Shown piece by piece: positions 26,848 through 30,376 of a stretch of 32,000 nt of DNA. The notes under the pieces are model-generated. The model was given only the letters and a program-made list of their open reading frames with translations, ran no database searches and was not told the DNA's origin. The DNA comes from Promethearchaeota archaeon (lineage in GTDB: Archaea > Asgardarchaeota > Lokiarchaeia > Sigyniarchaeales > SOKP01): assembly GCA_030606485.1 (NCBI GenBank), contig JAUWGH010000003.1, positions 360,001-392,000 on the forward strand, written 5' to 3'. Position numbers and translations under genes: made by a program. How positions within the stretch are numbered: position 1 is the first letter of the stretch; each line of letters opens with the position of its first letter.

Positions 26848-28278
26848 ATGCCTTCCTTAACATCTCAAAAAGAAGGTCGACCAACTAAATTTTTGGTTCT
26901 TTTTAAAAAGTTCTGGCCAAATTTCGTCGTATATAATTCATGGGCACTAACTATTTCATCCTTGTATATAAATATAATAATCGTTTCAAATATAATTTGG
27001 GCTGGAGAAGAGATTCATGTTGGAGAACTAGGAATTCTGTTTGGATTCGGAACATGGATGATGGGAATTTCAGGTTTGTTTTTTGGTTATTTAGCAGATA
27101 GGATTAATCGCATAAAACTTATGACATTAACTATGATAATGTTTGGAGTTGGTATGTTAATAAATGGATTTAGTCCAGAAGGGCAAGGATCCTTAACTTT
27201 TAACTTCTTTTTAGGATGCCTTTTATTCAGAAATTTTTTTTGTGGTGGGTTTTGGCCTATTATTCTCTCATATACAAACGATGCTGTAGAAGAATTTGAA
27301 CGTTCTCGGTTTTTTGGTGCTATAAATGCCACTTTTCAAGTTTTTCAGATAAGTGGGATGTTAATTTCCACCTTGTTATTTCAAAATCAATTTTGGCGTG
27401 AATTTATGTGGGGTATGGGATTGTTATATTTCATTGGAAGTATTATGATCTATCTAAAAGGTATTGAACCTAAGAGAGGAGGTACCCAAAATCAATTAAA
27501 AACAGTTTTATTCGAATCAAGGATCAAATATCAGTATAAATTAACAAAAAAAACATTTAGAACTACTATTTTAAAGCCTACTATTTGTATTTTATTTGTT
27601 GAGGGTATTTTTATTTCAATGTGTTTCTCATTGGTTGACTTTCTATTTATAACCTATTTACAATCACCACCTCATAACATTTCTCCCTTTATAACTACTG
27701 TATATCTGACTATATTTGGAATTTCTGGTGGCATTTTAGGATCTATCGGTTTTTCCAAGCTTTCTGATAGATTGGCAAATAAAAACTTCAAAAATCGTAT
27801 TTACTTAATTGTTTTTTCAATAGTAATAGTATTTTCGACATATATCTTTTTATTTTTTATTCCAATACAGAGTATGACTCCCGTTCAAGGAAATGATTTA
27901 GTATTTATAATAACTACTCCCGCATTTTGGTTACTTGGTATTGGCGCATTTATTTTTCGTTCCATTATAAGTATATATAGTATTAATCAACCACCACTTA
28001 TACAAAAAATTAATTTACCAGAAAGTCAAGGAATAATCAGTTCTTCTAGTCAATTTTTAGATTTTATAGGTCTCGGAACAGGACCAATAATAGCTGGTGT
28101 GATTTTGGAGTTATATAATAGAAATTATCAAATTACAGTGCTAATTTCAATGATTATTGGAATTGCAGGTGTACTCTTTTGGTTAATAGCAATAAAATGG
28201 ATTGATAAAGATATAGAAACAATTAAATCAATACTCAATCAACGAGCTGAAGAGATGGCTAGAATTAATGGGAAGTGA
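26848..28278 (+). CDS. Major facilitator superfamily transporter
   Basis: About 12 TM; motif A GYLADRINR and second-half SKLSDRLA; ERSRFFG loop. Confidence 0.92.
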   Translation: MPSLTSQKEGRPTKFLVLFKKFWPNFVVYNSWALTISSLYINIIIVSNIIWAGEEIHVGELGILFGFGTWMMGISGLFFGYLADRINRIKLMTLTMIMFGVGMLINGFSPEGQGSLTFNFFLGCLLFRNFFCGGFWPIILSYTNDAVEEFERSRFFGAINATFQVFQISGMLISTLLFQNQFWREFMWGMGLLYFIGSIMIYLKGIEPKRGGTQNQLKTVLFESRIKYQYKLTKKTFRTTILKPTICILFVEGIFISMCFSLVDFLFITYLQSPPHNISPFITTVYLTIFGISGGILGSIGFSKLSDRLANKNFKNRIYLIVFSIVIVFSTYIFLFFIPIQSMTPVQGNDLVFIITTPAFWLLGIGAFIFRSIISIYSINQPPLIQKINLPESQGIISSSSQFLDFIGLGTGPIIAGVILELYNRNYQITVLISMIIGIAGVLFWLIAIKWIDKDIETIKSILNQRAEEMARINGK

Positions 28279-28888
28279 TAATTTTTAATATCATGGCCGC
28301 CAAGTTGTCATTATAATCTTCCATACCTTCTAAATGTTCTCCTACAGTGTTGAAGAAATCCACAATTTCTATTTTTCTTTTTTCAAAGAAAGCCTGAATT
28401 TTTTCTCTTGCTTCTTGAAGCTTCTTATCTCTTTGAGCTTTACTCCCCTTCACCAAATCAACCTTATTAATACACACATAGATTTTTTTAGGAAAGAAAC
28501 GGACATCATTGAAAAATTCAAATTGTTTTTCAATAGGGCGATCCAAAGCAAATACAGCAATAATCTGTGAAGCGATCCGGCTAATTGTAATGATCCCCAT
28601 TCTAACAACTGCCCGGGCTTTATCTCCCCCAGGTGCGAATATCGTATGTGCTTTTTTTTCAGTTTCATCTCTAAAAATAACGCGATTGGGATGTATGGTT
28701 TTAGTTTCCTTTTTCTCTGTAGCTTCTCGAGGTAAAGTTGCCTCTCCAGAAAAGTCGGTCTTTACAATTACACATTTTCTTCCACCTTCCAGTGTTTCGA
28801 GTTTTTGTTTATTAATATAACTTACAAATAATCTTAAGAGGGTTGTTTTTCCTACAGAAATATCACCTAATAACCCTAGATTCACCAT
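28265..28888 (-). CDS. Atypical small P-loop GTPase
   Basis: G1 GDISVGKTT and G4 INKVD are clear. The G3 position reads FAPGG (no Asp) and the switch-I region is long. Confidence 0.78.
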   Translation of the reverse strand: MVNLGLLGDISVGKTTLLRLFVSYINKQKLETLEGGRKCVIVKTDFSGEATLPREATEKKETKTIHPNRVIFRDETEKKAHTIFAPGGDKARAVVRMGIITISRIASQIIAVFALDRPIEKQFEFFNDVRFFPKKIYVCINKVDLVKGSKAQRDKKLQEAREKIQAFFEKRKIEIVDFFNTVGEHLEGMEDYNDNLAAMILKIITSH

Positions 28889-28889
28889 C

Positions 28890-29705
28890 TTAATCTTCCT
28901 CCTCCTTTAATAATTTATTTAATAGAGTTTCATAATCAGGTATGAGATATTGTTCGAGTAGTGCACTATTATGGGCATTAATTAATCCTACAAAAACTTC
29001 CTTTAAATTCTTTGAATTTTTAAGATATTTTATTATCGTTTCAGATTCTACTCCAGCTCTTAGTGGTTTTGGTTCAGTATCAAATCCGAAATTTTCACTC
29101 GGAGGTAAAGAATTAAAAAATCCGAATGCAGTGTAGCCTTCATAAGCATAATAGCAAAAGAATCGAGATTTAATTGATTGAATAATCCTCGTCATATATA
29201 CACTTGGATATAACTCTCCAAGGGTCATACTTCCATCATAAGTTATGAGATAATAGGGGCTTATAGGAGATTTTCTTAAGCCAAACATTTCTTGAGGAGG
29301 TAAACAAACAAAAGGAATTTTTTCTTCGATAATGGCCCATAAATCCCATCGTTCTGCATCATTTAAAATTTGTTTAACTTCATCGAAAGCATAGTAAAAA
29401 TCTTGTTGAAAACTAAGTAGAGAACTTAGATAGACAGATAGAGATGCAAAAGTTGCTTCTAATACCGGCTGCTTTTTACTATCTTCGCTAGGTTTTATTG
29501 CACCACGCCAACTTCTTACTGCTGAATATGCAAATCCTTGAACATCAAAAAAATTCCCAGAAAGTATTATAAATTGTGGTATTTCCCCTTCTTCATCCGT
29601 GAGTAATTCTCTGGTTTTATTTAACAAAGCTACTTCAAGATTTATCTCTTTGTAGCCAGAATGCAATTGTGGCATTATCAGCCATTTATATTTCTTTTTT
29701 ACCAT
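28890..29705 (-). CDS. Hypothetical protein, probable inactive calcineurin-like metallophosphoesterase fold
   Basis: 271 aa open frame coupled to the GTPase. Degenerate motif series in the correct order: LIMPQLH, FIILSGNFFD, FVCLPPQE, LITYDG, LINAHNS. Confidence 0.55.
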   Translation of the reverse strand: MVKKKYKWLIMPQLHSGYKEINLEVALLNKTRELLTDEEGEIPQFIILSGNFFDVQGFAYSAVRSWRGAIKPSEDSKKQPVLEATFASLSVYLSSLLSFQQDFYYAFDEVKQILNDAERWDLWAIIEEKIPFVCLPPQEMFGLRKSPISPYYLITYDGSMTLGELYPSVYMTRIIQSIKSRFFCYYAYEGYTAFGFFNSLPPSENFGFDTEPKPLRAGVESETIIKYLKNSKNLKEVFVGLINAHNSALLEQYLIPDYETLLNKLLKEEED

Positions 29706-29809: not shown

Positions 29810-30376
29810 CTAAAATTTCGAATTTAAAACTTTCCTGATTCCAAATTCAATAAGGTCAAAATATTCTAATTTACTTACATTATTTATTTCAATTCTTTGA
29901 ATAGAATCGAGATTTTTGCATTTATCTATTTTCATTTCGAGGCGAGGTTCATTTTCTTTAATTTTAATTAGAATTTGTTGAATAAAATCATTAATAAAGA
30001 TTTCAGATTTTTCTCTCACGTCAATCTTCTCTGGTTCGACAAACAGAATTTCCACTTTTTTAAAATCAAAAAACTTTAAAATGCAGAGAAGGTCGTTATT
30101 TTTTGAGAATAATTTTCTTTTTATTAAAGTCCCTCTACCTTTATTTCCTATACTTTCTTTAAATAAATCTTCAGCACTCAATAAATTACTAGCAGTAGTA
30201 AAACTCTTTCCCGAGATTACTTTATTCAGTTGATTTATTACCAACTTGAGTTCATTGACTTCCTCAGTAAGTTTTTGGATTAGTTCTTTTTTATCAAGAT
30301 ATTGTTTATTAAGTGTTCTGTGAATATTTACTAATTTTTCAATTTCGTTTTTACCATCTTCTTCCTTGAAATTCAT
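29810..30376 (-). CDS. Hypothetical protein with N-terminal coiled coil
   Basis: 188 aa; heptad-like N-terminal ~55 aa followed by an alpha/beta-looking domain. Confidence 0.7.
   Translation of the reverse strand: MNFKEEDGKNEIEKLVNIHRTLNKQYLDKKELIQKLTEEVNELKLVINQLNKVISGKSFTTASNLLSAEDLFKESIGNKGRGTLIKRKLFSKNNDLLCILKFFDFKKVEILFVEPEKIDVREKSEIFINDFIQQILIKIKENEPRLEMKIDKCKNLDSIQRIEINNVSKLEYFDLIEFGIRKVLNSKF

Follow-up and report, generated by a model that had tools for sequence, protein, structure and literature searches.

An orphan gene pair of one Lokiarchaeial order, predicted to encode a small GTPase and a roadblock-like partner protein

Asgard archaea encode small GTPases by the dozen, along with many roadblock and longin proteins, and, to our knowledge, it is largely not known which regulator serves which GTPase. 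This question is raised by two genes, here called X and G, in a stretch of 32,000 nucleotides from a Promethearchaeota archaeon (assembly GCA_030606485.1, contig JAUWGH010000003.1, positions 360,001 to 392,000 of the forward strand; this whole stretch is referred to as the window, and coordinates are given in its numbering). G is a small GTPase, and we asked whether X is its partner and, if so, of which kind. In our best reading, X and G would be an expanded, sequence-cryptic variant of the roadblock-regulator-plus-small-GTPase pair, restricted to one order of Lokiarchaeia, the assignment of X being drawn from its structural model.

Both genes are open reading frames (ORFs) on the minus strand. 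Gene X (28890-29705) encodes 271 residues and belongs to an orphan family of one order of Lokiarchaeia, and gene G (28265-28888) encodes an orphan small GTPase of the TRAFAC class of 207 residues. At their junction (28886-28905, minus strand) the minus-strand letters are AAG GAG GAG GAA GAT TAA G ATG; a single spacer base (28889) thus separates the TAA of X (28890-28892) from the start codon of G, ATG (28886-28888). The run GGAGGAGG (28898-28905), located in the last codons of X, stands 9 nucleotides 5' of the G ATG. Relatives of X were collected by a pattern scan of one genome per GTDB species, which gave 135 relatives, and 80 loci were kept. In 78 of these 80 loci from other species, G lies directly 3' of X on the same strand. 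The gap from the X stop to the G start ranges from -4 to +3 nucleotides in 67 of the 78, the commonest value being -1 (TAATG type), and a GGAGG-like purine run is present at 22 nucleotides or less from the G start in 73 of them. A first-pass annotation of this DNA had proposed a tight coupling of the two genes from TAA-G-ATG and GGAGGAGG; the junction is confirmed and its conservation extends across the 78 loci. The overlapping or abutting stop and start codons and the internal Shine-Dalgarno-like run show that X and G are co-translated from one message.

The distribution of both genes was then scanned in 400 Asgard genomes, 243 of them outside the order that carries X and G. X was found in 119 of 134 genomes of family f1, in all 14 of f3, in 3 of 4 of f4 and in 0 of the 243 genomes of the phylum outside the order. 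At E ≤ 1e-10, G was found in 121 of 134 genomes of f1, in the single one of f2 (1/1), in 14 of 14 of f3 and in 3 of 4 of f4, and nowhere else among the 400. These counts show co-inheritance of X and G, each in single copy, within one order of Lokiarchaeia. Conservation of the gene pair, a check across Asgard genomes that the first-pass annotation had suggested, is borne out within this order by the 78 of 80 loci and by the same order-restricted distribution. In f3 and f4 the adjacency, with its overlapping or abutting stop and start, is retained despite entirely different flanks. Exact-sequence look-up identified the orthologues of Promethearchaeum syntrophicum MK-D1 (X, DSAG12_01607; G, DSAG12_01606), Candidatus Lokiarchaeum ossiferum (NEF87_004038 and NEF87_004039) and Candidatus Harpocratesius repetitus (K9W44_16815 and K9W44_16820), all of which are annotated as hypothetical.

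Mean distances of 0.31 for X and 0.29 for G, compared with 0.38-0.66 for the neighbour genes, show that X and G are the slowest-evolving genes of the neighbourhood. Their distance matrices exhibit the best correlation in the neighbourhood, with r of 0.877 and a partial r of 0.54 after removal of three neighbours, these mirror-tree values being non-independent since they are drawn from related genomes. Considering the conserved stop/start coupling, the identical order-restricted distribution and the highest distance-matrix correlation of the neighbourhood, X is most plausibly a partner or regulator of the GTPase.

The G protein presents a G1/P-loop, GDISVGKT (residues 8-15; 28844-28867, minus strand), in which G13, K14 and T15 are invariant, and a guanine-specificity motif G4, NKVD (residues 141-144; 28457-28468, minus strand). 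Its G3/switch II motif is FAPGG (residues 84-88; 28625-28639, minus strand), followed by an invariant D89. Across the G family this motif is F-A/G-P-G-G-D, with Ala or Gly at the Mg-water Asp position and Asp at the catalytic Gln position; therefore, the Mg-water Asp and the catalytic Gln are both missing in G. The earlier description of G as an atypical GTPase was accurate, G1 and G4 being intact but G3 being APGGD, and G is predicted to be a nucleotide-binding-competent GTPase devoid of the G3 Asp and the switch-II Gln. The switch-I region (KTDFSGEAT ... KETKTIHPNR) is long and almost invariant, the mean column identity of the family is 79%, and the protein carries no lipidation tail.

The structural model of G, with a predicted local distance difference test score (pLDDT) of 84.8, is a bare TRAFAC G domain with an extra strand (residues 39-45) before beta2. 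The sole Pfam model above cut-off for G is GTP_EFTU (PF00009; 31.7 bits versus a cut-off of 26.5), which matches 29 of 29 members at E ≤ 0.1; it is a broad G-domain model, and G does not have domains II and III of translation factors. Gtr1_RagA matches 6 of the 29 members, with a best E of 0.0096, below its cut-off, and a comparison of G with PDB sequences gave nothing significant. In a fold search the G domains of MglA, EF-Tu and Rag are the closest and are tied, and SelB and other translation-type G domains tie as well. G is, then, an orphan TRAFAC GTPase.

Other G-type sequences were also observed. In f3 (Harpocratesius and L. ossiferum) there is a second G-type copy (L105:3982-4608, minus strand; L106:4041-4664, plus strand; E ~1e-70). 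Upstream of it, beyond a 129-nucleotide spacer, is an unrelated helical ORF of 107-117 residues. No X-like gene is adjacent to this copy, and genes for a TraB/PrgY/GumN-family protein and a C69-type peptidase come after it. An f1 genome encodes an 878-residue protein (L115:1033-3669, minus strand) with an N-terminal degenerate G-like domain (P-loop GGISVGKK, G3 FAVGGD). It was considered as a Rosetta-stone fusion of X and G and rejected, the approximately 670 fused residues showing neither a Pfam match nor similarity to X. In a 74%-complete metagenome-assembled genome (MAG) of the MK-D1 genus, G and the neighbouring EPSP synthase share one frame of 677 residues (L114:1556-3589, plus strand). 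This was rejected as a real fusion, and the frame is probably due to a lost stop or an assembly error, because MK-D1 has two separate genes.

As to X, 217 homologues were found, at 55-63% identity, all of them annotated as hypothetical. The family profile (35 members), run against 1.84 billion representative proteins, matched its own family only; no match was found in Pfam, NCBIfam, PADLOC or PHROGs, and PDB sequences, searched with phmmer and with the profile, gave nothing relevant. Judged by its sequence, X is a tight orphan family.

The AlphaFold2 (AF2) model of X has a pLDDT of 81.5 and a predicted template modelling score (pTM) of 0.80. Its N-terminal part is composed of a short strand (13-16), a helix (21-35), a hairpin (45-50/58-65) and two helices (81-116 and 120-129). 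After an unmodelled loop (131-148) come two hairpins (151-156/160-165 and 182-188/191-197), then a pair of helices (221-229 and 234-246), followed by a short strand and one last helix. The three successive beta-hairpins form a single sheet with six main strands. In roadblock proteins the order is alpha1, two strands, alpha2, three strands, alpha3 (PMC3199381), and the order of secondary structures in the X model agrees with it, apart from one extra strand and inserts. From the model, X is predicted to have a roadblock-type sandwich fold, alpha1-beta-beta-alpha2-beta-beta-beta-alpha3, with one extra strand; its core would be a roadblock/longin/GAF-like alpha/beta/alpha sandwich with a long helical hairpin insert.

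Against the PDB and BFVD, Foldseek gave no match to the X model at E ≤ 0.001. When the X model was compared with 48,161 chains using VIA, about 22 of the 50 matches listed were roadblock/longin GTPase platforms, including the Asgard roadblock proteins 9jue_D, 7yh1_D and 7f8m_A and the longin platforms Mon1-Ccz1, GATOR1, BLOC-3 and CPLANE. The scores of GAF and LuxR domains are tied with those of roadblock/longin proteins, all of them in the grey zone; the coverage is about 97% for whole roadblock proteins versus about 80% for LuxR and GAF domains. The Asgard Rag-like chain 8yl2 is matched by X in its roadblock half and by G in its G-domain half. The genomic side of a roadblock partnership is present too, X being coupled to a small GTPase in the 78 loci and sharing its distribution.

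The helical hairpin of X (residues 81-129; 29319-29465, minus strand), made of the long helix and the return helix, occupies the position of the roadblock alpha2 and is the best-conserved element of the protein, with 21 of 49 residues invariant. In the MglB dimer the alpha2 'two-helix side' is the MglA-binding face (PMC3199381), and by analogy the X hairpin is a candidate GTPase-docking face. It is followed by a Pro-rich loop, IPFVCLPPQEMFGLRKSPISP (residues 130-150; 29256-29318, minus strand), with 10 of 21 residues invariant and a pLDDT below 50, which is a candidate partner-binding or trans-acting loop. The net charges of the two proteins are -8 for X and +8 for G. The distal half of the long alpha2 helix is amphipathic, with a hydrophobic moment of up to 0.57. 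Residues 89-114 (29364-29441, minus strand) gave weak NDH2_C matches in 14 of 35 members, with a best E of 0.005, below cut-off.

Several observations weigh against pairing X with G as a roadblock regulator. No Robl_LC7 match was found in Pfam for the window protein and the 35 members, and hhalign of the X family with 12 Robl_LC7 proteins of the same genome gave a probability of 0.5%; elsewhere in this genome there are 17 ordinary Robl_LC7 matches. The five AF2 models of X range in pLDDT from 81.5 down to 55, and the underlying alignment is shallow and of low diversity. The non-independence of the mirror-tree correlations counts on the same side. X and G are not adjacent in 2 of the 80 loci, one of which is at a contig edge; in the other (L023:4656-5471) an intact X is followed, instead of G, by about 1.4 kb of unrelated small ORFs, an arrangement that points to a rearrangement or a chimeric contig. 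In f1, a RimK-like gene is nearby in 68 of 80 loci and the kite gene of an SMC operon in 69 of 80, and the X-G adjacency is weaker evidence there because the synteny of the whole region is high. One could thus suppose that the two genes are neighbours by general synteny, in a slowly rearranging region and with no functional link. We regard this as extremely improbable, since the pair stays together, with stop and start overlapping or abutting, between the entirely different flanks of f3 and f4, and since the order-restricted distributions of X and G are identical. The tied VIA scores bear on another explanation, in which X is a small-molecule sensor of the GAF or LuxR-ligand-binding type coupling a metabolite or signal to the GTPase. 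The six main strands of the model are nearer to GAF than to the five of a roadblock. Nevertheless, we find this quite unlikely, as those scores are in the grey zone, coverage is lower for the GAF and LuxR domains, conservation in X peaks in the alpha2 hairpin and in a surface loop rather than in an identifiable pocket-lining set, and the gene paired with X encodes a GTPase, with which roadblock and longin domains are classically partnered (PMC3747258, PMC3199381). X could also be a client or effector, which would be loaded, folded or localised, alone or as a pair with U (the gene upstream of X, described below), by G acting as a GTPase of the EF-Tu-like or assembly type; or the two could act in one pathway without stable contact. 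The GTP_EFTU match in all 29 members, the tie of EF-Tu, SelB and other translation-type G domains with MglA, and the f3 paralogue of G that has no X-like neighbour speak for it. This too is unlikely, given that G is a bare G domain devoid of the translation-factor domains II and III, and that a stoichiometric complex agrees better with the 1:1 distribution of the two single-copy genes, with their translational coupling and with the very strong conservation of X and G alike.

The first-pass annotation had taken X for a pseudo-metallophosphoesterase, that is, a degenerate calcineurin-like enzyme analogous to Vps29 which, having lost its metal ligands, would serve as a GTPase adaptor. The five peptide strings on which this was based are all present: LIMPQLH (9-15), FIILSGNFFD (45-54), FVCLPPQE (132-139), LITYDG (152-157) and LINAHNS (241-247). 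These strand-plus-turn strings follow the phosphoesterase motif order and fall partly on conserved columns (H15, G50, D54, E139, H245 and N246); among the columns under them, H15, G50, P136, P137, E139, D157 and N246 are invariant, and D54 and H245 are conserved at 90% or more. The string assigned to motif III belongs to the Pro-rich loop that AF2 left unplaced, and because its pLDDT is below 50 the model may be incomplete there. Only Metallophos-bearing viral clusters were among the best matches of an ESM feature search, with a score of 0.80, but in the ESM Atlas this score is at chance level and is attained by a third of shuffled sequences. The metal-ligand motifs of phosphoesterases are DxH, GDxxD(R), GNH[DE], H, GH and GHxH. 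In the register of the first annotation, the ligand positions are Q13 (variable), H15, N51 (variable), D54, P137, Q/K138 and H245-N246; X retains at most H15, D54 and H245 as ligands, and the set of motifs is not present. Two of these relics are gone from the orthologue of f4, the most divergent family, in which G replaces D54 and Y replaces H245. No Metallophos or Metallophos_2 match was obtained for the window protein at E ≤ 1 or for any of the 35 family members at E ≤ 10, no phosphoesterase came up when PDB sequences were searched with the profile, and hhalign with four Metallophos_2 proteins of the same genome gave a probability of 0.1%. The X model is one meander sheet, whereas the phosphoesterase fold starts with beta-alpha-beta-alpha-beta and has a double sheet; the strand after motif II pairs as a hairpin in X, with no helix next. 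Compared with a four-layer, two-sheet arrangement, X has a single modelled sheet, with residues 131-148 unmodelled, and no phosphoesterase is listed by Foldseek against the PDB, by VIA or by BFVD, absence from a match list excluding no fold. What X shares with calcineurin-like metallophosphoesterases and Vps29 (PF00149, PF12850) is limited to the succession of short hydrophobic-strand-plus-turn strings and to a language-model lead at chance level; X differs from them in having no HMM, profile or fold match, in its single meander sheet and in the absence of metal ligands. The first-pass annotation had named a structure search without a metallophosphoesterase fold as what would refute its reading, and this is the outcome here, within the reach of these tools. 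We therefore consider this identification very improbable. Of the proposal that X was repurposed as a GTPase partner, the partnership agrees with the coupling and co-inheritance with G, while the dead-phosphoesterase origin is not supported.

The roadblock-type reading can be compared with known GTPase-regulator systems. In MglB-MglA of Thermus and Myxococcus (PDB 3t1q, 3t1r, 5ymx; PMC3199381), a roadblock/LC7 GTPase-activating protein (GAP) is associated with a Ras-like GTPase. As in mglBA, the regulator gene comes first and the GTPase gene second; like MglA, G has no G3 Asp and has PG in G3, and the extra strand before beta2 in its model may resemble beta2*. In X, conservation is highest at the predicted alpha2 face, whose counterpart in MglB binds MglA. 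However, X is larger (271 residues versus approximately 130-160); where MglB has a short alpha2 it carries a helical hairpin of 49 residues, it also possesses the invariant Pro-rich loop, one extra strand and additional elements at the C-terminus, and it has no sequence or profile similarity to Robl_LC7. In MglA, an Asp-less G3 (TxPGQ) occurs together with the catalytic Gln, and the switch-I Thr is preceded by an intrinsic Arg finger (PMC3199381). In contrast, G has Ala/Gly and not Thr at G3, the invariant D89 and not a catalytic Gln, and K63-T64 and not Arg-Thr in switch I. The intrinsic catalytic pair of MglA is absent from G because D89 stands for Gln and Lys-Thr for Arg-Thr; the N-terminal beta0 strand of MglA is not seen in the model of G either. 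The MglB2:MglA stoichiometry belongs to the Mgl system, X and G being known here from their genes and from monomer models.

With Rag/Gtr and the Asgard Rag-like proteins (LokiRagO, 8yl2; LokiRagM, 9m28; RagC in 6nzd) the differences are of another kind. X and G are separate polypeptides and the roadblock-like part comes first, which is the reverse order; G is a bare G domain of 207 residues with no C-terminal roadblock fusion, its Gtr1_RagA matches are below cut-off, and its G3 is APGGD versus DxGGQ. The Ragulator LAMTOR2/3 (MP1-p14), Mon1-Ccz1, GATOR1 Nprl2/3, BLOC-3 and CPLANE are eukaryotic multi-subunit complexes with no detectable sequence relationship to X. No ancestry of X to these complexes is implied, because X is absent from Asgard lineages outside one order.

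The comparative genomics of X and G is consistent with a stoichiometric complex in which X is the roadblock-type platform for G. We give about an even chance to the proposal that together they form a GTPase switch specific to this lineage, each providing one subunit, on the plan of MglB-MglA and of the Rag G-domain/roadblock pair. In such a switch, the alpha2 hairpin of X would dock on the face of G formed by switch I, beta2/beta3 and switch II, and a single X chain would thereby mimic the MglB dimer's 'two-helix side'. X would set whether G is in one nucleotide state or another, most likely by stimulating a hydrolysis of which G alone would be incapable, either by ordering the own residues of G, as MglB does, or by donating a residue from its invariant loop. 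The product of U would probably be a third partner, contacting X rather than G. A more detailed version, which we regard as rather unlikely, makes X a single-chain roadblock-derived GAP whose alpha2 hairpin replaces the dimer face, with the invariant Pro-rich loop, or a different invariant residue (R64, R119, R181, Q100 or N246, for example), completing the G active site in trans; with U added, X and G would make up an essential switch of three proteins, specific to the order, in the one Asgard lineage that has cultured members.

Tran et al. (2024) reported that the GTPase genes of MK-D1 are generally not in operons with roadblock, longin or TRAPPC3 genes (PMC10933270), which makes the pairings of Asgard GTPases with their regulators hard to predict. 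X-G is an exception to this operon rule, being a single-copy, near-universal and very slowly evolving operon of a GTPase plus partner in its order. The accession numbers of the MK-D1 pair are present in no paper of the literature searched, nor in the supplement of PMC10933270, and the available parts of surveys of Asgard Ras-superfamily GTPases mention taxon-specific divergent groups, among which the X-G group does not figure. MK-D1 and L. ossiferum, the two cultured Asgard archaea that were checked, both carry X and G, which therefore offer a GTPase-regulator pair that can be tested directly. If X is truly a cryptic roadblock derivative, the known structural range of this class of regulators is widened. 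Since it is confined to one order, X-G bears on Lokiarchaeal cell biology and not directly on the origin of eukaryotic trafficking.

Gene U (29810-30376, minus strand) lies 104 nucleotides upstream of X and encodes 188 residues, with an N-terminal coiled coil and a small alpha/beta domain. In 75 of 80 loci it adjoins X on the upstream side, in the same orientation, and it stays in the f3 cluster despite the differing flanks; in one genus (G134) it is located after G and not before X. U was found in 118 of 134 genomes of f1 and in 13 of 14 of f3, and in 0 of 4 of f4, where it is absent or undetected. In two families, f1 and f3, the cluster includes U as its third gene. Its distances track those of X (X-U partial correlation 0.52) and not those of G (G-U 0.08). 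Family-model and profile searches gave no family or fold match for U, the ESM Atlas returned only unnamed archaeal clusters, and comparison with the roadblock, X and phosphoesterase profiles gave nil.

On the other side of the pair, an MFS transporter gene (26848-28278, plus strand) is convergent with G, their 3' ends overlapping by 14 nucleotides. This gene lies between G and the kite gene in the genus of the window only (3 of 80 loci); in most f1 genomes the kite gene of an SMC5/6-like operon abuts G. The complete RimK-like/U/X/G/kite synteny also occurs on a contig (L073, DATKTW010000069.1) filed under 'Candidatus Nanopelagicaceae bacterium', an actinobacterial MAG, and is most likely that of an Asgard contig mis-binned into a bacterial genome.

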